This document shows, piece by piece, positions 36,050-62,132 of a stretch of 64,000 nucleotides of DNA. The stretch lies in sequence record OK272470.1, one strand, 5' to 3'. A program made the position numbers and the translations under genes. Each line of letters starts with the position of its first letter. Position 1 is the stretch's first letter. A model generated the notes under the pieces. It was given only the letters and a program-made list of their open reading frames with translations. It was not told where the DNA came from and made no database searches. This DNA comes from Escherichia phage JLBYU50.

Positions 36050-36844
36050 TTACGCTTTTGCTCCAAATTTTTTAACCCACTCACCAAACTCTTCGGATAA
36101 CAGTTTATCGTAAAGTTCTTCATCAGACAAGGACAAATCTGCAATACCGATAAAATCAACATTATCGTATTCTTTTGCCAAGTCTTTCAGGAATTTAAAG
36201 TTTGCATTACCTACACCAACCATAAACCAGTAAACAGGTGTATTGCGGTGTTTGTTCAGTAAGCTACGTACTGCTGAAGTATCCATGTTCTCCCCGTCAG
36301 TTTGGAAGAAAATCATTGCAGGAGTACGATCAACTTGTGCATCAGTATCTACAACCTGTTCTACAACAGTACGTGTTACTTCTACAAGTTCTTTTTTACC
36401 AGTTAGTTTAGCAAGGAAACCTTTAGCTGGAACTTCTTCATACTCAACGACTTCGCGTGTAATATTTTTCATAGGTACACTACCGAAGTATGTATCATAA
36501 ATGTCTTGCATTACTGGAGCATAAGCTGTACCACCATTGATGCAAACATTAGACATACAAGAGCCGACATAATCATCATATACATCAGCCGTTGCAGGAG
36601 GCAGTTCAAAAGAAGAACTATTGAAAGCCCACATGTCAATCTGCGCATTATCATCAAACTTCATACCAAACGGCAGCAGCTTACCTACAAAATCACTAAC
36701 AGTGCCATCACGATATAGCTCACACATACTACCCGAAATATCTAAGGCGCTACCGACACGAAGAACAACATCGTTAATCTTTTTCTTACGCAGAGATACA
36801 GTAAGAGTTTCTTGACGTTTTTTAAGACTGATTTTATTGGACAT
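36050..36844 (-). CDS. von Willebrand factor A domain protein (TerY-like)
   Basis: MIDAS motif DISGSM near N-terminus; N-terminal ISLKK...SLRKKK resembling TerD leader. Confidence 0.6.
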   Translation of the reverse strand: MSNKISLKKRQETLTVSLRKKKINDVVLRVGSALDISGSMCELYRDGTVSDFVGKLLPFGMKFDDNAQIDMWAFNSSSFELPPATADVYDDYVGSCMSNVCINGGTAYAPVMQDIYDTYFGSVPMKNITREVVEYEEVPAKGFLAKLTGKKELVEVTRTVVEQVVDTDAQVDRTPAMIFFQTDGENMDTSAVRSLLNKHRNTPVYWFMVGVGNANFKFLKDLAKEYDNVDFIGIADLSLSDEELYDKLLSEEFGEWVKKFGAKA

Positions 36845-36845
36845 A

Positions 36846-37115
36846 TTATTTCTCCTTTCTGACTGTAATGTTAGTAACTTCTAAATCCACTTCTACCACT
36901 TCTGTATCATATAAAATACAGTTAAGTTGACCTCTTTGTGAACCGTTCAGACACATTGCTTGGTTTGTATTAACCTTAATAAACACTAAGTTTATGAACG
37001 TATCTAAACCAGAATCTTGATAGGCAACATAATATACAAATGTATCACCTGTGTCAAGTTCTCCAAAACATTTAGGTTCATCTGATTTGTCGTCTTTGAT
37101 ATTAAATTTAAGCAC
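36846..37115 (-). CDS. hypothetical protein
   Basis: 89-aa ORF, overlapping stop/start with neighbours. Confidence 0.4.
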   Translation of the reverse strand: MLKFNIKDDKSDEPKCFGELDTGDTFVYYVAYQDSGLDTFINLVFIKVNTNQAMCLNGSQRGQLNCILYDTEVVEVDLEVTNITVRKEK

Positions 37116-37671
37116 TGTCTTCTCCTTTACCTGCTCTCAAGCCTAAATAGAAAGCCTCTCTGGTGATTTTTTGCAACTCGTTTAAAGAGATAGTTACAAC
37201 TAAATCATCTTCAATTTCTAGCTTTGAGTCTTCTTCTGTCTCAATGCAAGTATTATGCACTTTGTGGTAAGGATTGTCAACACGTTTAAATTTATTATTT
37301 TCAGTGCTGAAGAAGCAATCTGGATCTTCTTCTCCATCACCCCAACCCTGGTTAGGGTCTTCTTCAGATCTTTCTGTTGGGATCTCACCTGTAAAGTGCT
37401 CTTCTAATACCAGAGCAATCCCATCTCCAAGATCGGAAGAGAACATCAAATTACAAACTTCTTCCCAAGGCATAGACCACTTAAATCTTTTACGATTGCC
37501 ATGTTTATCTTCTTCGTTAGAGAAAACACTACCATAGCTATCATAATTGCCATACATCTCTTCAACAACTTTACCACCTTTCAAAAGAAATAGGTAGCAA
37601 GGAGAGCCATCGAAAGAGGTAGAAAGAGCAGCATTACCAGACTCTTTGCACAAGAAACTAAAACACCCCAT
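37108..37671 (-). CDS. hypothetical acidic protein
   Basis: 187-aa ORF. Confidence 0.45.
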   Translation of the reverse strand: MGCFSFLCKESGNAALSTSFDGSPCYLFLLKGGKVVEEMYGNYDSYGSVFSNEEDKHGNRKRFKWSMPWEEVCNLMFSSDLGDGIALVLEEHFTGEIPTERSEEDPNQGWGDGEEDPDCFFSTENNKFKRVDNPYHKVHNTCIETEEDSKLEIEDDLVVTISLNELQKITREAFYLGLRAGKGEDSA

Positions 37672-37871
37672 TATACACCAACCTTAAGATCAATTATAGC
37701 CAAAGTGGTTTCAGAGTGTGTTTGCTCGTCTACAGGTGCAGTCATGTGATAATACAAAAAATCTTCGGCATCATACCAATCTGACTCTTGACCTTGTTTC
37801 CAACCATCAATGAAAGCATCTTCCATAATTGTTTGTAACTCTTCACGAGTTAAGTGAATATCTTTACTCAT
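37671..37871 (-). CDS. hypothetical small protein
   Basis: 66 aa, start/stop overlaps. Confidence 0.4.
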   Translation of the reverse strand: MSKDIHLTREELQTIMEDAFIDGWKQGQESDWYDAEDFLYYHMTAPVDEQTHSETTLAIIDLKVGV

Positions 37872-38104
37872 TACACATTCTCCTCTTTTACCAATTCCAT
37901 CGTTGAACTATCAAAACCATCTTTAGAAGAATAGGTATAGACAGAACGTAGTTCTCGCAGGACAGTGAATACATTGGGATCATCTAACCAAGCATCCTGG
38001 AGGAGAACATAACGATCTTCATTGTCGTACTGGACAGCAATCATAGAACCAGACAGTTTGTAAATTTTAATATTCATAATATATTTCTCCTTAAAGTAGA
38101 CCAC
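37871..38104 (-). CDS. hypothetical small protein
   Basis: 77 aa. Confidence 0.4.
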   Translation of the reverse strand: MVYFKEKYIMNIKIYKLSGSMIAVQYDNEDRYVLLQDAWLDDPNVFTVLRELRSVYTYSSKDGFDSSTMELVKEENV

Positions 38105-39194
38105 GTTTAACAGTTTGAATCATACCATCTTCAAGAGATTGCACTTCTTGAATGTAATCAATACGCGCAGCACGGGCTTCAGTGTTGATTCGGTTAGTTT
38201 CTTCCAACATTTTAACTAAGTTTTCTTGATCGCGACGTAATGTCTCAATATCCAATACTTGACGATTAGCAAGTTGTGTAGCTTCAATTTGGTTTTGTGC
38301 CGCCAGATCACTACCCATTGCAATAGCAGCATTAAATTCATTCAGCACATTGTTCTGTGTATCGGCTGCTTTCTTCTGGCGTAGACTTTCAATATACATA
38401 GAAAAGTTTGCAGAGTAAGCAGGGATAACATTATTCACAATATTACGGGCTGATCGCATCAAACTTGCAGATACTTTCTGCATACTTTGTACACGTGGCC
38501 CCATCTGAACACACAGTAAGCGTAGGGCTTTCAGGTCTGCAATACGAATTTCAAGCAGATCCATAGTATCACGAGTACGTTGACGCTCTTCTACCTCATT
38601 TTCAGGCAGTGTATTAAGGCGAACTTCTTCTTTTTCATACGTAGCTGTTAGAAGCTCTATATCTCTGTTTAAGCTAAGAGCATATTTGGCAATAGCCTCT
38701 TCTAAACGTTGCAGATATCGTAAAGAATCTTCTTCTTTTTTCAAGTCTGTTTGGAGTGTCTTTACCAAACCTTCAATACGATTATTGATGGTGTCAAATT
38801 CTCCAAACAAATCTTCTTTCATACCTAATACTTTCTTAACTAGTTTACCTAAGCCTTTAGATTGCTTAATAGAGTTAGGATCAAGTTGCTTTGCTTGCTT
38901 AATAAGTGCAGTTAAACGTTCACTCATTTCATCCCCCTGAGATGAACGCTGGTGTTTAAGCACTTCAGCATTAAGGTTACGAAGAGTAAGTCCTGCATCA
39001 GCACCAACTTGTTCAATCTCTTCACGAGACATTGGAGGCAGCATTTGTACAGGTCGTGCAACAGCAGGGGCATATACAGGGCTTGCATCCATAGCACTTG
39101 GAGCAAATAAAGACTTACTTTTTTCTGTTGTTGCCGTGAATACACTCATTTCAGACGGTTTGCTTTTTACGGCACTGATAAAAGGACTGGACAT
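38091..39194 (-). CDS. TelA-like (toxic anion resistance family) coiled-coil protein
   Basis: 367-aa all-helical protein; assignment rests on overall pattern and genomic linkage with TerD/TerC/vWA genes. Confidence 0.45.
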   Translation of the reverse strand: MSSPFISAVKSKPSEMSVFTATTEKSKSLFAPSAMDASPVYAPAVARPVQMLPPMSREEIEQVGADAGLTLRNLNAEVLKHQRSSQGDEMSERLTALIKQAKQLDPNSIKQSKGLGKLVKKVLGMKEDLFGEFDTINNRIEGLVKTLQTDLKKEEDSLRYLQRLEEAIAKYALSLNRDIELLTATYEKEEVRLNTLPENEVEERQRTRDTMDLLEIRIADLKALRLLCVQMGPRVQSMQKVSASLMRSARNIVNNVIPAYSANFSMYIESLRQKKAADTQNNVLNEFNAAIAMGSDLAAQNQIEATQLANRQVLDIETLRRDQENLVKMLEETNRINTEARAARIDYIQEVQSLEDGMIQTVKRGLL

Positions 39195-39262
39195 TCAATT
39201 TCCTCCATATTCTTTAGTAGATGGTGATACCTCTGTACCACCATCATAACACAAATTAAGTA

Positions 39263-40114
39263 TTAAACAAACATATCTAAATAATTTGTAGTAATAAACG
39301 CCCCATCTGCTTCCAGATTAACATAACCAGTAGCATTAGTGGTTAAGAAATCCAGATCGAAGGACTCTTTAACACCCCGTACCTCAACACGAGAGATATC
39401 GAATACAGGTAGTGTAACAGCCTCTTCGTGCAATACCGTACCTTTGTAGGTTGCCTTAATGATAAACTTGATATTACCCGTTCCAGCATCATACAAAACA
39501 CTTTCAAACCCTTTGAGAGTATATTTATCACCAGAAGTGAAGTGCAAAGTTGCTTTGTTTACAGTACGTTTTTTACGAGGAGTTCCTTTCACACGTTTAT
39601 GATCACTACGTTTTTTGTACTTAGGAATGAATACAAACGATACATTCTGAAGAAAGGTATCAACATCAAGGATTTTAATATCCTCTGTTGCAGCAAATTT
39701 TGAAGTCGTTGCATCAAAATGCTTTTCCCTGCGATCATACATAAAGATATCAAACCGATCTTCTAAATCAAACAAATTATGTATTTTAATTTCAGAATGC
39801 TTGCGCATTGCAGCAACCTTGAACTCTTCAAAACGTGGGTGTTCTACAAGTTCTTCAAGTTTTACACCAAAGACAGTATATTGCTTCGGAGTTTTTTCTG
39901 GTGTTGGCATTACAGAAGCATAATCCCCGATTGCGCTCTTAAAGCAAAATTGTTCTTGACCTGTATTTTTACCAACGAATTTACAGTATTCATCATTGTG
40001 CATACTTTCCTTAGTAGTACCAACAAACTCAAAACCATCTTTATTCTTCTCAAGAATTTCTTGATTAAAGATCCAACCTTCCAGGCGATACACTTTACCA
40101 ACTTCTAGTTTCAT
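39263..40114 (-). CDS. hypothetical protein
   Basis: 283-aa ORF. Confidence 0.5.
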   Translation of the reverse strand: MKLEVGKVYRLEGWIFNQEILEKNKDGFEFVGTTKESMHNDEYCKFVGKNTGQEQFCFKSAIGDYASVMPTPEKTPKQYTVFGVKLEELVEHPRFEEFKVAAMRKHSEIKIHNLFDLEDRFDIFMYDRREKHFDATTSKFAATEDIKILDVDTFLQNVSFVFIPKYKKRSDHKRVKGTPRKKRTVNKATLHFTSGDKYTLKGFESVLYDAGTGNIKFIIKATYKGTVLHEEAVTLPVFDISRVEVRGVKESFDLDFLTTNATGYVNLEADGAFITTNYLDMFV

Positions 40115-40149
40115 CTGTTTCTCCTTCTTATTTAATCTGTATTAAATTA

Positions 40150-40740
40150 TTAACGACGACGTGAGCTACTAAAACTACGTTTCGACGAAGAATAACTTTT
40201 CGAAGACTTACTATAAGAGCTAATAGGACTTGAGTAAGACTTACGAGCAGAGTAATCACTATTCACTTTTGTTGTTGATGGGCGTGAATACGTTTGTACA
40301 CTTTGCTGCTTAATTGTGTTTTGTTTAGTGGTTGTATATGTATTTCCTTGTTTATCATAAAAACTATGCTTTTGTGTTGTATATGCTTTGCTATTAGTTG
40401 TAGGAGCAGCGTTGTTATTGATAATTGTTGTATTGCTACCGCCATCTCTATAACCACCACCGCCACTATTACCACTCAACATATGACCAAGAAGCATACC
40501 TGTAGCAAACTCACCTACACCAGAAGAACCACTGCCGCCTCCTTGCACAACAACTGTTGAAGGTTGTGCAGGTGCTGCTTGAACAACTTGAGGTGCAGGT
40601 TGATTTACATATTGTTCATCTACCATCTGATTTGGTGTTTGTTGGTAACGTTGATTTTGTACATTTTCAGAATCATCACAACCTACCAGCAATACACTAC
40701 CTAAAACAACTGCAACAATAAAAGATTTAATGTTTTTCAT
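40150..40740 (-). CDS. outer-membrane lipoprotein with Gly-zipper-like and Ser/Tyr-rich regions
   Basis: Start reassigned to ATG at 40740; signal peptide with lipobox LLVGC; GGGSGSSGVGEFATGMLLGHMLSGNSGGGG. Confidence 0.5.
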   Translation of the reverse strand: MKNIKSFIVAVVLGSVLLVGCDDSENVQNQRYQQTPNQMVDEQYVNQPAPQVVQAAPAQPSTVVVQGGGSGSSGVGEFATGMLLGHMLSGNSGGGGYRDGGSNTTIINNNAAPTTNSKAYTTQKHSFYDKQGNTYTTTKQNTIKQQSVQTYSRPSTTKVNSDYSARKSYSSPISSYSKSSKSYSSSKRSFSSSRRR

Positions 40741-40933
40741 TTGTAACCCTCTCATTTAAAGTCTCAACACAATTTTTAAAATCCCTAGAGAAACAATACA
40801 TCTGTTCTCCGTTCCTGTTGATAGTAATTGTATGGTTATCAATATATGTTGTCAAGATAAAAATCAAACAAAACAACCCTAGAGCAAAACAAATATTTTC
40901 AAACAGAATCCAAAGAACACGTAAAACCACCAT
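40727..40933 (-). CDS. small membrane protein
   Basis: 68 aa with hydrophobic LGLFCLIFILTTYI segment. Confidence 0.35.
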   Translation of the reverse strand: MVVLRVLWILFENICFALGLFCLIFILTTYIDNHTITINRNGEQMYCFSRDFKNCVETLNERVTNEKH

Positions 40934-40946
40934 CAGATCACCTCAA

Positions 40947-40968
40947 TAAAGCCCCCGAAGGGGCTTAA
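40947..40968 (-). terminator. stem-loop downstream of TerC-family gene
   Basis: aagcccc-cgaa-ggggctt hairpin. Confidence 0.55.
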
Positions 40969-40972
40969 TGAA

Positions 40973-41950
40973 TTAAGCAACAGCCTGGTCTTCTTTTTCA
41001 GGGAAGATTAAACTTGCAATAACACCCAACCCAAGAGTACCTAACACAATATACATACTGATCGTCGGATCAATGTGTGCTGGTAGGAAACTCACTTTTG
41101 CGTGCAGAGTTTCTGCAAACGGGTGATACATCAGTTTTACACCCACAAATACCAGGACTACGATAACTGCTTTCTCCAGATGAACCAAATACTTCAGTGC
41201 AACACTAAGAACAAAGAACAGAGCGCGTAAACCTAAGATTGCACAGAGCATCGAAGAGAACACCAGCAGAGGTTCTTGTGTCACTGCAATTACTGCTGGA
41301 ACAGAGTCTACTGCAAAGATTACGTCAACCATTTCCATTACAAACACACAAACCAGAGCCGGAGTTGCTACACGAACACCATTTTTGATTGTGAAGAACT
41401 TCTCACCATCCATCTGATCAGATACAGGGAACAGCTTACGAACAATGCGAGTAGCCCAGTGTTTAGAGTAATCAACTTCTGCATCATTATCTCCAGCGAA
41501 TACCATTTTAGCCGCACAGAAAAGGATGACAGCACCGAAGAAGATATTAACATACCAGCCCAAACTCAACAAGTAAGTACCTACTGCTACAAACACACCT
41601 CGGAAGACAATCGCACCTGCAATACCCCAAAGTAGAATCTTGTGTTGCAAGTGTGTGCTTTTAATACCAAAACTTGCGAATACTGCCACAAATACTACTA
41701 AGTTATCTACAGAAAGAGATTTCTCCAACACATACCCACTCAAGAACAAACTCGCAAAATCAGCACCGTGTTGGAAGTATACAAAACCATAGTAGGCTAA
41801 TGATACCCCAATCCAGAAAATTGACCAACCAACTGCCGATTTAAATGAAATCTCTTTGTTTTCTCTGTGTCCAAAGAAATCAATACAAATCGACAACACT
41901 AAAATACCCACTAAAACAACCACATCAATAATTGGGAAACCCAGTTGCAT
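40973..41950 (-). CDS. TerC-family integral membrane protein
   Basis: Multi-TM 325-aa protein with duplicated signature LEKSLSVDNLVVFVAVF and FAVDSVPAVIAVT. Confidence 0.75.
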   Translation of the reverse strand: MQLGFPIIDVVVLVGILVLSICIDFFGHRENKEISFKSAVGWSIFWIGVSLAYYGFVYFQHGADFASLFLSGYVLEKSLSVDNLVVFVAVFASFGIKSTHLQHKILLWGIAGAIVFRGVFVAVGTYLLSLGWYVNIFFGAVILFCAAKMVFAGDNDAEVDYSKHWATRIVRKLFPVSDQMDGEKFFTIKNGVRVATPALVCVFVMEMVDVIFAVDSVPAVIAVTQEPLLVFSSMLCAILGLRALFFVLSVALKYLVHLEKAVIVVLVFVGVKLMYHPFAETLHAKVSFLPAHIDPTISMYIVLGTLGLGVIASLIFPEKEDQAVA

Positions 41951-56286: not shown

Positions 56287-56315
56287 TTGACATACTGTTT
56301 TATTGTGCTAATCTT
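56287..56315 (+). promoter_or_regulatory. sigma70-like promoter in divergent intergenic region
   Basis: TTGACA at 56287-56292, about 16-17 nt spacer, TAATCT -10-like element. Confidence 0.45.
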
Positions 56316-56346: not shown

Positions 56347-56898
56347 ATGCAAAACATCGATCTTACTTGGATAGAAGCCAAAGAAGCAATGTTAAAAGGC
56401 AAACGCGTTAAACATAAATACTTTTGCGAAGGAGAATGGTTTGAAATGCGTAACCGATCCATTGTAGATGAAAAAGGGAATGACATGCAACAATGGTTCA
56501 AAAATGAAATTTGGCAGGGAACAGGTTGGTCTGTAGTTGAAGAGCAGCCTAGCTCAATCGCACTGTTTAGCCCTATTATGTATCGCGTTATCGGTGCTTT
56601 AGTTGTTGATCACGGGATTGCAGTGGAAAAAGAATACTGGGAAGAGGTATCTTTTTTCAACCTGGCTTCTTATGCAAAAAGCCATATGCACTTGTTTGAA
56701 GAAGGGGATGAATTTGTTCTTCGTATGCGATATGGCAAAGAATTCAGATTACCACTTGATAACGATGTAGACACTGTTGTAAAATGGTTAGCAGAGCATT
56801 ATGCTTACGATGCAATTTGTGGTCGCAGCTTCGGCAACGAACGCTGGGACATGATTTGTGAAAAATATGATTTTGAGCCGGAATACGGAGTTTTATAA
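56347..56898 (+). CDS. protein with DUF2829-like N-terminal domain (Tad2-like candidate)
   Basis: Start reassigned to ATG at 56347 (RBS gagaggag); N-terminus LTWIEAKEAMLKGKRVKHKYF resembles DUF2829 opening FGEALEALKxGKKVxRxGW. Confidence 0.4.
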   Translation: MQNIDLTWIEAKEAMLKGKRVKHKYFCEGEWFEMRNRSIVDEKGNDMQQWFKNEIWQGTGWSVVEEQPSSIALFSPIMYRVIGALVVDHGIAVEKEYWEEVSFFNLASYAKSHMHLFEEGDEFVLRMRYGKEFRLPLDNDVDTVVKWLAEHYAYDAICGRSFGNERWDMICEKYDFEPEYGVL

Positions 56899-57806: not shown

Positions 57807-58934
57807 ATGAAATACACGATTTATGGTGATATTGTAAGTGTAAATAAAGATATGGGCGTGGAATCTAACTATCTTCCACCTGGATTCTATACTGTTAGTC
57901 GTGATCCCCTTGGCAATTATTTTTTAAGCCGTGGTAATCTGACAGGTGTACCGGATGTTTTGTATGGTGAAACAGAAAAACGAGCAAATCACGTTATCCG
58001 TACATTCCATCGCCGGAGTGCACAAGGTAAAAACACAGGCTTGCTTCTGACAGGAACTAAGGGCAGTGGTAAAACTATGTTAGCCAAACTCATTAGTCGT
58101 GACCTTGTAGAAGAAGGTATTCCAACTATTATGGTTACTCAAGCCTACAGTGATGCTAATTTCATTGAACTTATTAGCAAGATCACCGACAAAGCAGTGA
58201 TTATTTTTGACGAGTTTGATAAAGTGTATGAGAAGAAACAAGATCAAGAAGCACTTCTCACTTTGTTAGATGGTACTGGCAGTGGTAATAAACTGTTTAT
58301 TCTGACTAAAAACAGTGGTTTTATTTCTGAATTCTTTTTAAATCGTCCTAGTCGTGTGTTTTATAATTTTAATTATGATAAAATCTCACTAGAAACTATG
58401 ATTGACTATTTAGATAAAAACCTAGATAACAAAGCACACTTTGATAATTTCCAAAGACTTTGGGATGTAAGTTTAGAGTTGTCCTTTGATGTGATCCAAG
58501 GTATAGTAGAAGAACTTAATTTCTACCCTGATTTATCCTTTAAAGAATGCATCTCTATGATGGGCGTTTCTTTAGGTGGTGGTAATAAATGGGATATCAG
58601 CAGTGTTGTTATTAATGGGAAACTTCAGAAAGTTAGCTGGGTATCTAGTTGGCATAACTTTACACCTGCAATCTTTTTAGGTGGCTCGTGCACACTAGAC
58701 GTGTACTTGTCATCTCCAAGTGATGCAGACTCTAAAGAAGCCCTTGCTAATAGCTCTTACGTGGTTTTTGATGATGAAGGAGATGCTCGAATTCCATTGA
58801 ATGCGACAAAAATGAAAGCAGATCTTATTACAGGCGGTAAAATCGTTGTGTTTAGTGATGATCCAGAAGATTCTTTCCGTATTGTTCTGGAGCCAACTAT
58901 CACCAATGGTGCAACTTTGGCAAGTGTGTTTTAA
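57807..58934 (+). CDS. AAA+ ATPase (paralog B)
   Basis: Walker A GTKGSGKT; Walker B IIFDEFDK; sensor-1 FILTKN; Arg-finger NRPSRVFY; collinear with paralog A across about 300 aa. Confidence 0.65.
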   Translation: MKYTIYGDIVSVNKDMGVESNYLPPGFYTVSRDPLGNYFLSRGNLTGVPDVLYGETEKRANHVIRTFHRRSAQGKNTGLLLTGTKGSGKTMLAKLISRDLVEEGIPTIMVTQAYSDANFIELISKITDKAVIIFDEFDKVYEKKQDQEALLTLLDGTGSGNKLFILTKNSGFISEFFLNRPSRVFYNFNYDKISLETMIDYLDKNLDNKAHFDNFQRLWDVSLELSFDVIQGIVEELNFYPDLSFKECISMMGVSLGGGNKWDISSVVINGKLQKVSWVSSWHNFTPAIFLGGSCTLDVYLSSPSDADSKEALANSSYVVFDDEGDARIPLNATKMKADLITGGKIVVFSDDPEDSFRIVLEPTITNGATLASVF

Positions 58935-58949
58935 GTAAGCCAGCAAATA

Positions 58950-58975
58950 AAAACCCGCTTCGGCGGGTTTTCTTG
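58950..58975 (+). terminator. rho-independent terminator
   Basis: acccgc-ttcg-gcgggt hairpin followed by TTTTCTTG. Confidence 0.75.
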
Positions 58976-59008: not shown

Positions 59009-60001
59009 ATGGGAACACCAAAATCATGGGAACAATATAAAGAAGAATTAACACCTCTTGCTAAAAATCGCAATATTCAAATCCTGGGTTATGTTGGTGA
59101 ATGGAAAGGGAATAAAACAAAACTTGATTTGTTGTGTCATTGTGGGTATAGATGGCAAAGTACAGCTATTACGGACTTTAAACGTGGTGGTGGTTGCCCC
59201 AGTTGTAATTTAGATAGCTTACGCAAACGTATAATCATCCCTGACGATCAACACATACAAGATTTCATGAATACTGGCGCTTTCCAACCAGGAACCATCT
59301 TCATCAATACAGGGGAACGTACTGGAAATAGTGACAGTATTTGGTGTATAAAATGTCCTATTTGCTCATACGACGAATATGTACAAGCTGGAGTATGTGA
59401 TGGTAAGTTTTATTCTACAAAGAGTAGTCTTAAAAACGGGAGTCTCGCTTGTCGTTGTTCTACACGTTATGTGTTTAGCGATCAGCAGTTAACATACCGC
59501 ATGAGAAAGGAGTTGCAGAAAAAAGATTTGATTTTTATTGAATGGGTAGGCAAACCTTCTGTAAGATTAGGTAAGTTTAAATATCTTTGTCTTGTACATG
59601 GGGAGCAGATAGGGAGTGCTAGTAACTTATTAAGCCACGGTCGAGGTTGTCCTATGTGTGCTGGTCATAGTCAGCAGCAGTTATATATTAATATTGTTAA
59701 GGATGATAATATTATAGTTGCTCTTAAGTTTGGTATAGCTAAAGATAGTGATAGGCGATTAAACATTCAAAATAGCCGTAATCTGTTTTTTATGGAACGT
59801 ATTTGTTTATATGATTTTAGCACAGTGAAACAGTGTAAGGCTGCTGAAAGAGCTATAAAGAAAAAATTAAAAACTGGTATTTTAACAGCAAGAGAGTTGA
59901 AAGACGGTCATACAGAAACAGTAAGTGTTTCTGATTTGGAAAATCTTCAAAAAATTATTACACAATATGGTGGCAAATTAGTATATAGTAAGGAGGTGTA
60001 A
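59009..60001 (+). CDS. zinc-ribbon repeat protein with C-terminal T5orf172 (GIY-YIG-like) domain
   Basis: Three Cys modules (CHCGYRWQ...GCPSCN; CPICSYDEY...CRCSTRY; CLVHGEQ...GCPMCAG); C-terminal VALKFGIAKDSDRRLNIQNSRNLFF resembles T5orf172. Confidence 0.5.
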   Translation: MGTPKSWEQYKEELTPLAKNRNIQILGYVGEWKGNKTKLDLLCHCGYRWQSTAITDFKRGGGCPSCNLDSLRKRIIIPDDQHIQDFMNTGAFQPGTIFINTGERTGNSDSIWCIKCPICSYDEYVQAGVCDGKFYSTKSSLKNGSLACRCSTRYVFSDQQLTYRMRKELQKKDLIFIEWVGKPSVRLGKFKYLCLVHGEQIGSASNLLSHGRGCPMCAGHSQQQLYINIVKDDNIIVALKFGIAKDSDRRLNIQNSRNLFFMERICLYDFSTVKQCKAAERAIKKKLKTGILTARELKDGHTETVSVSDLENLQKIITQYGGKLVYSKEV

Positions 60002-60553
60002 ATGCGGATTACTGATAAGTATGTGTTCTTCTTTTCAGCAAAAGATGAATTTAGCAACTGGTATCTATCATCTTTTATTGAACCTTTAGCTCCCAAGTAT
60101 AATAATTCTATTACAAGTTCTGTTGAATTTACTTGTGTGGAACAATATATGATGTGGAGAAAAGCATGTTTATTTTATGATTACAACATTGCATCTTCTA
60201 TTTTAACCGGAGATCTAAGATATACAGGAGAAAAAGAACAAGCATATTATAAGCGACTAGGCAGATTAGTTAAAGATTATGATGAAGATACCTGGACTTC
60301 TTTACGGGAGAAGATTGTCAAACGTGGTTTGTATCTTAAATACACACAAAATGAAGATCTCAAAAATAAACTTATAGCCTACGCAGATAAGGAGTTCGTA
60401 GAGGCAAGCCCTTATGATTCTATTTATGGTATCAAAATGGGGATGTGGGATCGGGACGTGGAAAATAAGGATTGTTGGAAAGGACAAAATCTTTTAGGAA
60501 AATGGCATACAGACCTTGCTGTTTATCTAAAAGCACAATCTGATATTTCCTGA
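60002..60553 (+). CDS. NADAR (YbiA-like) domain protein
   Basis: Collinear with E. coli YbiA: FSNWY, VEQYMMWRKA, RGLYLKYTQNEDLKNKLIAY, FVEASPYDSIYG, GQNLLGKWH; ATG overlaps upstream stop. Confidence 0.75.
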   Translation: MRITDKYVFFFSAKDEFSNWYLSSFIEPLAPKYNNSITSSVEFTCVEQYMMWRKACLFYDYNIASSILTGDLRYTGEKEQAYYKRLGRLVKDYDEDTWTSLREKIVKRGLYLKYTQNEDLKNKLIAYADKEFVEASPYDSIYGIKMGMWDRDVENKDCWKGQNLLGKWHTDLAVYLKAQSDIS

Positions 60554-60772
60554 TATTTTGAAAATTTTTATTTTTATAAAAAGGGGTGTGGGTTTCATGT
60601 ACGGAAATTCACCCTCTGCACAGTATATCCAGAGTAAGTAGTATTCTATACCCTGTTAATAAAGTATTTAATTTGTTTGTTGGACTATGGTATCTGATCT
60701 TTAAAAGGCATACTATCTCTTAACTACTACTTATAACAGAACAGTAAAATCATTTTTATAAAAAGTACAAAA

Positions 60773-60969
60773 TTATTTAAAGTTTTTACAGATTTTTGGG
60801 TACAAATTTTGAAAATGAAAAGTTCAAGTTTGGTCAAAATTATTTAAAGTTTTTGTACGTATTTCTATTCAGATTTTGAAAATGAAAACTTCAATTTTTT
60901 AAAAATTCCCCAGTTTATTTAAAGTTTTTTTGCCTTTTTCCGTAGAAAAATCAAAAATGAAAAGTTCAA
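60773..60969. repeat. three tandem copies of a composite element (ttatttaaagttttt - 21 nt - TTGAAaatgaaaagTTCAA)
   Basis: Unit A at 60773, 60840, 60915; palindromic unit B at 60809, 60876, 60951; A-to-B spacing 36 nt in each copy. Confidence 0.7.
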
Positions 60970-60992
60970 TTTCGTGTTTTTATAGGTGTGTT

Positions 60993-61050
60993 AATGAGAA
61001 TCATTTTCGTTTGTAAATGAGAATCATTAGCAAATGAGAATTTTCTCATT
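60993..61050. repeat. three copies of palindromic site AATGA-gaa-TCATT
   Basis: aatgagaatcatt at 60993-61005 and 61016-61028; extended palindrome aatgagaattttctcatt at 61033-61050. Confidence 0.65.
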
Positions 61051-61286
61051 TAGAGAATAACGCGCAGGGGTGGTGTTTGTCTCGCGCTCCCGTGTCCCCT
61101 CGCCATACAATAAGAATAGCATAACCAACAACAAAAGCAAGCGATTATTTTTATCTTTACATTTCTTTACAAATTTATTTTGGACGAGCTACCGGCGATC
61201 AACCTTCCAACCAGTGCCCCCTGGTATGTTAGCCCCGCCTTTACGCCGTGGGGGTGGCGTTTCCTCTTCTGTATGTAAAACAGTAT

Positions 61287-61320
61287 AAGCCCGATCCCTG
61301 GGCTTGTCAATATTATTTTT
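61287..61320. terminator. stem-loop aagccc-gatccct-gggctt with T-run on + strand
   Basis: Hairpin followed by gtcaatattattttttgtttt on + strand; overlaps 3' end of - strand ORF 61313..61579. Confidence 0.35.
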
Positions 61321-61579
61321 TGTTTTCTTGCCAGGATAGGACACCTAACCAAAAATACATGTCGCCCCGCGCCCCTGGCGGGATCTTGCTTTCCCCGCCG
61401 CCACTGCAAGCCCATAGATAACCATTTACGAACGTATCAAAGTGATCTATCTCTTCCACCTTATGATCGCCCAGGTTGAGAACGGTTTCAACCTTTAAGC
61501 CCGTTGCGCTTGCTACCTGGTGCACCGTGCCGCCTTGCCAGCCCAATGAGTGCATGAGATGTAAAGGAGTATTTGTCAT
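61313..61579 (-). CDS. hypothetical protein encoded in GC-rich islet
   Basis: 88-aa ORF, RBS aaaggg; own sigma70-like promoter; GC content visibly higher than phage average. Confidence 0.45.
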   Translation of the reverse strand: MTNTPLHLMHSLGWQGGTVHQVASATGLKVETVLNLGDHKVEEIDHFDTFVNGYLWACSGGGESKIPPGARGDMYFWLGVLSWQENKK

Positions 61580-61626
61580 GGTATCGCCCTTTCTTTGATG
61601 TGCGCCCTGGTTGGCGCGGTAGAAAG

Positions 61627-61655
61627 ATAATAGCCGTTTCCTTTATAGATAGCAA
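61627..61655 (-). promoter_or_regulatory. sigma70-like promoter for ORF 61313..61579
   Basis: On - strand TTGCTA, 17-nt spacer, TATTAT. Confidence 0.45.
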
Positions 61656-61691
61656 GCAAAAAAGAAATGAAAAAAAGATTAAAAAAAATGG

Positions 61692-61720
61692 TTGACGTTC
61701 CTCACCTGGTAGCGTAGTAT
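61692..61720 (+). promoter_or_regulatory. sigma70-like early promoter
   Basis: TTGACG, 17-nt spacer, TAGTAT, upstream A-tract. Confidence 0.55.
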
Positions 61721-61773
61721 TCATCTTGTCGAGGGGGCAATAGTGCCGCTCATAACAGAAGAGAGAAATAATC

Positions 61774-62046
61774 ATGGCATCATATAGCGCATCAATGATC
61801 GTAACGGGTATCACTGGTAAACCTATGCGCGGTGGCGGATCTTTCGCTAACATCAACATTGACGGGCGTTTATCCCTGGACGCAGCGATCACAGTGGCAC
61901 GGGAAACATTTAAAAAAGAATGTAATTTCAATAAACAAGATTATCTCGGTTTCGCTATTGAAAAAACCGCGCGCTTTGTGGATTATAAAAGCCCGAAAAT
62001 GATCGACACTACACTAAAAGCGCAAGATGTAGCGTTTTTGCTTTAA
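61774..62046 (+). CDS. early protein, unknown
   Basis: 90-aa ORF with RBS gagaga; downstream of promoter. Confidence 0.45.
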   Translation: MASYSASMIVTGITGKPMRGGGSFANINIDGRLSLDAAITVARETFKKECNFNKQDYLGFAIEKTARFVDYKSPKMIDTTLKAQDVAFLL

Positions 62047-62049
62047 GGT

Positions 62050-62077
62050 TTGACACTGAAAAATAATTGGGTAATAT
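62050..62077 (+). promoter_or_regulatory. sigma70-like early promoter
   Basis: TTGACA, 16-nt spacer, TAATAT. Confidence 0.55.
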
Positions 62078-62132
62078 ATACGACATAAGGCGGGGAAATG
62101 GTTTCCCGCCAAATCAAAGAAAGGGTAATGCA

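Follow-up and report, generated by a model that had tools for sequence, protein, structure and literature searches.

The open reading frame at positions 60,002 to 60,553 of the analysed stretch of DNA, 64,000 nucleotides from Escherichia phage JLBYU50 (sequence record OK272470.1) referred to as the window throughout, very probably encodes an AdfN-type counter-defence enzyme, which removes the ADP-ribose that DarT1 installs at guanine N2 from phage DNA. Judged by sequence comparison, its product belongs to the AdfN-Bas60 orthogroup, and a functional difference from AdfN-Bas60 is not expected. The original prediction, made from the raw sequence, had described the gene as a candidate eraser of guanine ADP-ribosylation directed against host defences, which is supported by the reported neutralisation of DarT1 by the 99%-identical AdfN-Bas60 (PMC11825919). 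Since this protein, identical at 181 of 183 positions, was reported in 2025, the eraser reading has been published before; hence, the anti-DarT NADAR finding is correct, already CHARACTERISED and not new.

Identification of the NADAR protein

The reading frame starts with ATG, ends with TGA and encodes 183 amino acids (aa). Its coordinates are as predicted, and the four NADAR motifs occur in the order claimed, namely FSNW at residues 17-20, VEQYMMWRKA at residues 46-55 (containing E47-Q-Y49), EASPYDSIYG at residues 134-143 and GQNLLGK at residues 161-167; the observation is thereby confirmed, and the match to the NADAR family lies far beyond chance. The strong Shine-Dalgarno sequence of the gene sits within the 3' end of the upstream CapR/T5orf172 gene, the TAA stop of which (59999-60001) directly adjoins the NADAR ATG. 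The features of the locus and the correspondence of active-site residues are compiled in Table 1.

A profile search against NADAR/DUF1768 and a structure prediction with comparison to YbiA had been proposed along with the prediction, the absence of a profile match or the loss of catalytic residues counting against it. The search was significant, with a score of 125.8 bits (E=2.5e-36) for Pfam NADAR PF08719 (DUF1768), the gathering cutoff of which is 35.1 bits, and the match spans profile positions 9-154 of 163. In addition, PHROG 1017 matches the protein with E=3.5e-50. An AlphaFold2 (AF2) model, computed from a 64-sequence alignment, reached a pLDDT of 96.9 and a pTM of 0.90 and displays the YbiA-like fold, an alpha-helical core between two small beta-sheets. 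Foldseek comparison of this model with the PDB returned 8BAU, the NADAR-ADP-ribose complex of Phytophthora nicotianae (Pn; PMC11543638), with a TM of 0.77 (E=1e-9), and E. coli YbiA 2B3W with a TM of 0.68 as the sole significant fold matches; apart from these two, sequence comparison detected no solved structure. Hence, profile, catalytic residues and fold, each of which was tested, all agree with NADAR identity, and according to the profile scores and the residue mapping neither the family match nor the catalytic residues are missing.

Table 1. Features of the NADAR locus and its surroundings in the window, and residues of the phage protein that correspond to active-site residues of Pn NADAR (8BAU)
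Feature	Position	Strand	Basis or counterpart
Tail and tail-fibre genes	1 to 21.7 kb	+	
DNA methyltransferase, PolA, primase/helicase, glycosyltransferases, endolysin and ribonucleotide reductases, followed by small unknown genes	22 to 56 kb	-	
Candidate promoter of the sigma70 type at the start of the + block (TTGACA, 16 nt, TGc-TAATCT)	56287..56314	+	Sequence and custom scan; inferred
Divergent block: small ORFs, AAA ATPase, CapR/T5orf172 gene, NADAR	56.3 to 60.55 kb	+	
AAA ATPase, 375 aa	57807..58934	+	Pfam AAA, 38.9 bits; phrog_2376
Hairpin AAAACCCGC-TTCG-GCGGGTTTT, bidirectional, intrinsic-terminator-like, between the ATPase and the endonuclease-NADAR pair	58950..58971	+	Consensus scan
CapR/T5orf172 gene, 330 aa, homing-endonuclease-like	59009..60001	+	Pfam; phrog_681 'endonuclease'
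Shine-Dalgarno AAGGAGG, 5 nt 5' of the NADAR ATG	59990..59996	+	Direct sequence reading
adfN-type gene, stand-alone NADAR-domain ADP-ribosylglycohydrolase, 183 aa	60002..60553	+	ORF, Pfam, Bas60/Bas62 identity, AF2
E47 codon, catalytic glutamate	60140..60142	+	Pn NADAR E43; E. coli C7 DarG1 E88; opposite T4 AdfN E36
K54 codon, phosphate-coordinating lysine	60161..60163	+	Pn NADAR K50; C7 DarG1 K95
K84			Pn NADAR K75
R88			Pn NADAR R79
Y93			Pn NADAR Y84
E95 (changed)			Pn NADAR D86
W98			Pn NADAR W89
R102			Pn NADAR R93
E134 codon, subfamily-diagnostic acidic residue	60401..60403	+	Pn NADAR E125
D139 codon, water-mediated pyrophosphate contact	60416..60418	+	Pn NADAR D130
Y142 (changed)			Pn NADAR W133
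Stretch of about 1.2 kb without a long + strand ORF	60.55 to 61.77 kb		
Further small genes, all of them having their own near-consensus sigma70 promoter	61.77 kb onward	+	

Active site and subfamily

The residues of Pn NADAR that contact ADP-ribose or are needed for hydrolysis were defined by structure and mutagenesis (Schuller et al. 2023; PMC11543638). E47 was assigned as the catalytic glutamate from the alignment with 8BAU, the 64 homologues and the profile alignment with T4 gp30.3, together with the mutagenesis in PMC11543638 and PMC11825919. The phage protein keeps E47, K54, K84, R88, W98, R102, E134 and D139, that is, the full catalytic and ADP-ribose-binding set, and E47, K54, K84, W98, E134 and D139 are invariant across the 64 homologues. 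The catalytic residues are both intact and invariant, which points to selection for catalysis and speaks against a non-catalytic inhibitor of defence, which would bind ADP-ribose or an effector. Such a function has a precedent in a phage NADAR-type inhibitor of Retron-Eco1 that does not need enzymatic activity (Carabias et al. 2024, as cited in PMC11825919); for the protein described here it is very improbable.

Among the solved structures, 8BAU is the best match, with 28% sequence identity and 125.6 bits for the family profile. Pn NADAR is a eukaryotic protein; all its ADP-ribose-contacting residues are conserved in the phage protein except for the two changed positions in Table 1, and the phage protein differs further by a short lineage-specific insertion at residues of about 28-40. 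By comparison, E. coli YbiA has the same fold and a conserved Glu/Lys/Glu/Asp active site but is more distant, with 67.8 bits, and represents a housekeeping clade of riboflavin-intermediate N-glycosidases. The phage protein appears to belong to the 'NADAR proper' clade rather than to YbiA, and it lies outside DarG1. The label 'YbiA-like' in the original prediction is loose, as the profile is nearer to 8BAU and the published tree places the protein among non-YbiA, non-DarG1 members.

The relation to YbiA bears on whether the protein could instead be a housekeeping N-glycosidase of the YbiA type, which destroys reactive intermediates of the riboflavin pathway. The protein carries the glutamate that characterises the YbiA family in the broad sense of de Souza and Aravind, passes the cutoff of NCBIfam TIGR02464 ('riboflavin biosynthesis intermediates N-glycosidase') with 109.8 against 73.7 bits, and appears in several GenBank records under 'GTP cyclohydrolase II / riboflavin biosynthesis'. 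On the contrary, the profile score for 8BAU is about double that for YbiA, AdfN-Bas60 is set outside the YbiA clade in the published tree (PMC11825919), riboflavin genes are absent nearby, and protection against DarT1 in vivo, which was given by the orthologue of this protein, failed with E. coli YbiA (PMC11125620). A housekeeping role in riboflavin metabolism is hardly credible.

DarG1 proteins (BC4488 subfamily), for instance of E. coli C7 and G. lovleyi, share the hydrolysis of guanine-N2-ADP-ribose on DNA with the proposed phage enzyme and counter the same toxin. They are encoded next to darT1, whereas the phage gene is flanked by the T5orf172 endonuclease gene and a non-coding gap, with no ADP-ribosyltransferase (ART) domain. 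Moreover, DarG1 has an aspartate at the position equivalent to E125 of Pn NADAR, where the phage protein has E134, and features a basic N-terminal beta-beta-alpha extension, which the phage protein lacks, as its NADAR core begins at residue 7 or thereabouts. A PADLOC scan of the phage protein gave no DarG match but 117 bits for PDC-M42C, the NADAR component of a candidate defence system, and DarG1 structures were absent among the significant sequence or fold matches.

AdfN-T4 (T4 gp30.3), the prototype of anti-DarT NADARs in phages, belongs to the same superfamily, with the same proposed chemistry and role, and its catalytic E36 and its K43 align with E47 and K54 of the phage protein in a profile alignment. 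The similarity is undetectable by BLASTP (E=2.2) and weak by profile (E=0.0013, 19% identity; hhalign probability 18%). NADARs of the T4 type carry a histidine at the position of E134. Furthermore, they are reported to need the T-even context for full activity and not to neutralise DarT1 in uninfected cells (PMC11825919, PMC11125620).

Orthology to AdfN-Bas60 and range of substrates

The phage protein shows 100% identity to its counterpart in phage VivaForever and differs from bas62_0106 of BASEL phage Bas62 (JohannJBalmer; 182/183 identical) and bas60_0111 of BASEL phage Bas60 (PaulScherrer; 181/183) by one or two conservative substitutions at positions 62, 96 and 178, all of which lie outside the set of catalytic and ligand-contact residues. 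The flanking genes are likewise common to the three loci. According to Johannesman, Awasthi, Carlson and LeRoux (Nat Commun 2025; PMC11825919), the NADAR of Bas60, Bas61 and Bas62 is AdfN-Bas60, AdfN denoting anti-DarT factor NADAR. In a tblastn search, each phage record showed one NADAR-like match (717 places in 716 records), and the link between the protein in the window and AdfN-Bas60 rests on this result together with the authors' statement.

In that study, AdfN-Bas60 neutralised the toxicity of DarT1 in uninfected E. coli and was thus active without other phage factors, and on DarTG1 hosts its ectopic expression allowed RB69, T5 and Bas25 to form plaques at full titre again, while T5 was not rescued on DarTG2, which modifies thymidine; the published activity is guanine-specific (PMC11825919). 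In the main text, an in vitro glycohydrolase assay was found for AdfN-T4 only, and the enzymatic activity of AdfN-Bas60 is deduced from the rescue in vivo. Reports of a deletion of the gene, whether in Bas60-62 or in another phage of the Stephanstirmvirinae, were not found in the literature searched. In the published tree, AdfN-Bas60 groups with bacterial NADARs that are neither DarT-associated nor YbiA, which suggests a capture independent of that of T4 AdfN (PMC11825919).

DarT1 may be only one natural target, because Glu-type NADARs also remove cytidine-linked ADP-ribose and count RNA guanosine-ADP-ribose among their substrates, as reported by the Mikolcevic group (PMC12945103). Extending the main explanation, the phage protein could act as a broad-spectrum de-ADP-ribosylase of nucleic acids, which would clear cytidine-ADP-ribose, RNA guanosine-ADP-ribose or both in addition to its guanine target on DNA; DarT1 would then be one of several opponents, alongside pierisin/ScARP-like or yet-undiscovered ADP-ribosyltransferase defences. 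The diagnostic position occupied by E134 is a glutamate in NADAR-proper and YbiA proteins, an aspartate in DarG1 and a histidine in T4-type phage NADARs (PMC11543638, PMC12945103), and the glutamate classes hydrolyse both cytidine- and guanine-linked ADP-ribose, whereas the aspartate and histidine classes clear only the latter (PMC12945103). Wider targets were also suggested by Johannesman et al. themselves (PMC11825919), and the PDC-M42C match of the same subfamily points in the same direction. On the other hand, no E. coli ART defence that targets cytidine or RNA and restricts these phages is known; this extension is doubtful.

A soluble substrate is a further candidate. The protein might degrade ADP-ribose-derived immune signals or toxins, such as the cADPR isomers of Thoeris/TIR systems or ADPr-1''P, with DNA repair not being its main role. 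Signal degradation of this kind was proposed in general terms by Iyer et al. 2022 (PMC9503650), and on two jumbo-phage-like contigs homologues with 42-43% identity adjoin genes of NAD+ salvage (NMNAT-like CTP_transf, NAMPT/NAPRTase). Nevertheless, the experiments on the 99%-identical protein demonstrate the reversal of a DNA-modifying toxin (PMC11825919), cleavage of a Thoeris-type signal by a NADAR was not found in the literature searched, and no SLOG, Macro or Nudix partner is seen beside the gene; among ten genes with vague annotation in the adjacent block, Pfam likewise returned no Macro, Nudix or NAD-salvage partner. A principal role in signal degradation is therefore quite improbable, and the removal of DarT1-installed ADP-ribose from DNA is retained as the main explanation.

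Genomic setting and expression

Both neighbours named in the original prediction, a Zn-ribbon/T5orf172 protein and an AAA+ ATPase, are recovered by Pfam. The 330-aa product of the adjoining gene comprises CapR Zn-finger sequences over three stretches (103.6 bits) and a C-terminal T5orf172 nuclease domain related to GIY-YIG (21.4 bits, cutoff 20). Its orthologues measure 390 aa in Bas62, 467 aa in Bas60 and 486 aa in phAPEC8 and vary by whole N-terminal repeat modules, the protein in the window having fewer CapR repeats than those of Bas60 and Bas62. T5orf172 homing endonucleases carry repeated CapR DNA-binding domains, gain and lose them in frame via recombination between repeats, and sit at boundaries of genetic exchange (Barth, Dunham and Seed 2023; PMC10448857). 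This architecture, together with the variation in repeat number, suggests that the neighbour is a selfish gene of the homing-endonuclease type, which is probably not a functional partner of NADAR. The 375-aa ATPase contains an AAA domain (residues 79-170) only; since a protease domain is absent, the label 'FtsH-like protease' in some records is unsupported.

The gene order of ATPase, endonuclease, NADAR and gap is kept in phAPEC8-type phages, the NADAR of which is 57% identical. A single functional system of ATPase, endonuclease and NADAR was considered and rejected, as the hairpin terminator sets the ATPase apart, the endonuclease bears the hallmarks of selfish T5orf172 homing endonucleases, and two small ORFs lie between endonuclease and NADAR in the phAPEC8 type.

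Scanning the window for perfect TTGACA -35 sites placed 7 of the 10 on the + strand within 56-64 kb and most of those on the - strand within 24-56 kb, while the tail-gene block has one on its coding strand. Such sigma70-like promoters thus follow gene orientation and cluster in the NADAR and replication blocks, which supports non-late transcription by the host RNA polymerase, early and middle expression not being separated by this signal. No transcriptome or timing data for Stephanstirmvirinae were found in the literature; the HIDEN-SEQ preprint covers T4 and Bas54, which belong to another lineage.

The hairpin between the ATPase and endonuclease genes has a predicted folding energy of -15.9 kcal/mol, and the annotation of phage Paula independently shows terminators at this position. 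Because a good promoter is absent between this hairpin and the endonuclease-NADAR pair, the pair is probably expressed by read-through across it. Of the 'early operon' in the original prediction, non-late expression is thus backed by the sigma70-like sites, whereas the hairpin splits the ATPase from the endonuclease-NADAR pair and early timing is unproven.

Searches for tRNAs and Rfam families gave nothing meaningful, either over the whole window at the gathering threshold or over positions 60500-61900 in E-value mode. A host origin of the conserved GC-rich block downstream of the NADAR gene was rejected, as it has 0 matches in 5,426 E. coli genomes.

Proposed mechanism

Upon infection of a DarTG1 host, DarT1 would ADP-ribosylate guanine N2 in the phage DNA and thereby block replication. 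The phage NADAR, presumably produced before or during DNA replication, would bind the ADP-ribose moiety via K54, K84, R88, Y93, W98, R102 and D139, whereupon E47 and E134 would cleave the N-glycosidic bond between ribose and guanine. Unmodified DNA would thus be restored and phage replication could proceed. In this capacity the protein would resemble an orphan type-IV antitoxin for which other phage factors are not needed, and countering DarT1 is presumably what it mainly does in the native phage. Since the position of the locus is kept in the sister genus Phapecoctavirus with 57% amino acid identity, the gene appears to have been retained over the long term.

Distribution and implications

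By sequence comparison, the window derives from an rV5-like lytic myovirus of the Justusliebigvirus type within the Stephanstirmvirinae. The 4.5 kb around the NADAR gene match 140 phage records, the best of which is Serratia phage KKP_3264 (98.7%), followed at about 94% by many Escherichia phages of the Stephanstirmvirinae (Justusliebigvirus, Phapecoctavirus). These relatives are lytic myoviruses of the rV5/phi92-like type with genomes of about 145-150 kb; the original description of the phage as virulent is supported. The gene is variously recorded as 'putative YbiA-like N-glycosidase', 'GTP cyclohydrolase II', 'riboflavin biosynthesis protein' or 'hypothetical'; the correct label is AdfN / NADAR ADP-ribosylglycohydrolase, which should replace the last three of these.

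Beyond this lineage, the 716 phage records with related NADARs include groups of Staphylococcus, Listeria and Enterococcus myoviruses with genomes of about 135-150 kb. A bacterial origin of two homologues on long contigs (P0103, P0040) was rejected, as their gene contexts resemble those of jumbo phages. Taken together, the inference drawn from raw sequence agrees with the 2025 experiments on orphan NADAR 'antitoxins' outside the T-even phages, and the spread of related proteins over so many phage records suggests that phages may widely be under selection from base ADP-ribosylation. The tight coupling to T5orf172 through abutting stop and start codons may help to spread the anti-defence gene between co-infecting phages by co-conversion. 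It is rather unlikely, when taken as a whole, that the Glu-type phage NADAR is a general base-ADP-ribose eraser, acting on guanine and cytidine in DNA as well as RNA, whose dissemination the endonuclease perhaps aids. If true, such an eraser would shield the phage from several ADP-ribosyltransferase defences, undiscovered ones included.

Predicted transcription signals and the variable endonuclease of the + strand block

Between the genes encoding the AAA ATPase and the CapR/T5orf172 homing-endonuclease-type protein, a perfect 9-bp GC-rich hairpin is bordered by an A-tract and a T-tract and is predicted to be a bidirectional terminator. With a terminator at this position, the downstream NADAR gene would not simply be co-transcribed with the ATPase gene. 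At the head of the + strand block, the mechanical ORF call starts at a TTG (56287), while the relatives are annotated from an ATG at 56348 that is preceded by GAGAGGAG. The TTG start is probably wrong; a preferable reading of the TTGACA at 56287 is that it forms the -35 element of a candidate promoter for the block.

The CapR/T5orf172 protein differs in its number of N-terminal Zn-finger repeats between near-identical phages, with lengths of 330 aa in the window, 390 aa in the related phages Bas62, VivaForever and Paula, 467 aa for the Bas60 protein and 486 aa for that of phAPEC8. Recombination among the repeats within the gene could account for this size variation.

Coordinates of features in the window
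Feature	Position	Strand	Remark
vWA-TerF-like	36050-36844	-	
TelA	38091-39194	-	
TerC	40973-41950	-	
AAA ATPase	57807-58934	+	
Predicted terminator hairpin	58950-58971		
CapR/T5orf172	59009-60001	+	
NADAR	60002-60553	+	183 aa
AT-rich repeat stretch	60760-61060		GC 0.23
Conserved GC-rich segment	61030-62110		~1.1 kb
Hairpin-rich sequence	61040-61310		~270 bp
88-aa ORF	61313-61579	-	phrog_19316
90-aa ORF	61774-62046	+	phrog_8099
Divergent promoter region	inside 61030-62110		

Record labels and related gene neighbourhoods

In public records, the NADAR gene carries inconsistent labels, namely 'GTP cyclohydrolase II', 'riboflavin biosynthesis protein', 'putative YbiA-like N-glycosidase' and 'hypothetical protein'. 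For the ATPase, the labels 'FtsH-like protease' and 'Zn metalloprotease' occur, which are not supported, as the protein contains no protease domain. Moreover, over this region, five records named 'Campylobacter phage' (MG065689.1 and four others; host C. jejuni) share ~97% identity with the lineage of E. coli phages that the window comes from, and their labels may reflect a wrong host or name assignment, or contamination.

More distant NADAR homologues, with 42-43% identity, are located on metagenomic contigs of 455 kb and 310 kb (L007 4026-5477; L009 5001-10480), which look like jumbo phages. There, they adjoin NAD+-salvage genes (NMNAT-like CTP_transf; NAMPT/NAPRTase) and lie close to an Apyc1 anti-Pycsar gene and GIY-YIG endonucleases. 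Elsewhere in the window itself, a tellurite-resistance-like gene set, made up of vWA-TerF-like, TelA and TerC genes, occupies the - strand (36050-41950).

Repeats and a conserved segment downstream of NADAR

In the AT-rich stretch downstream of NADAR, a direct repeat of ~67 bp (TTATTTAAAGTTTTT...GAAAATGAAAAGTTCAA) occurs two to three times, and after it come recurring AATGAGAAT(CATT) motifs that look Fur-box-like or iteron-like. The motif array of Bas60 and Bas62 is 51 bp longer than that of the window. This stretch could constitute an origin or a regulatory array.

The GC-rich segment that follows (GC 0.44-0.49; the whole window averages 0.38) shows 90-92% DNA identity to phages of the phAPEC8 type, which belong to the sister genus Phapecoctavirus, while the ATPase, NADAR and other flanking genes reach just 69-78% in the same comparison. 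A search of 5,426 E. coli genomes yielded no match to the segment, and an Rfam scan found no family in it. The segment may represent a module that was exchanged or homogenised recently, perhaps in connection with the nearby homing endonuclease; alternatively, it may constitute a cis-acting or RNA element.
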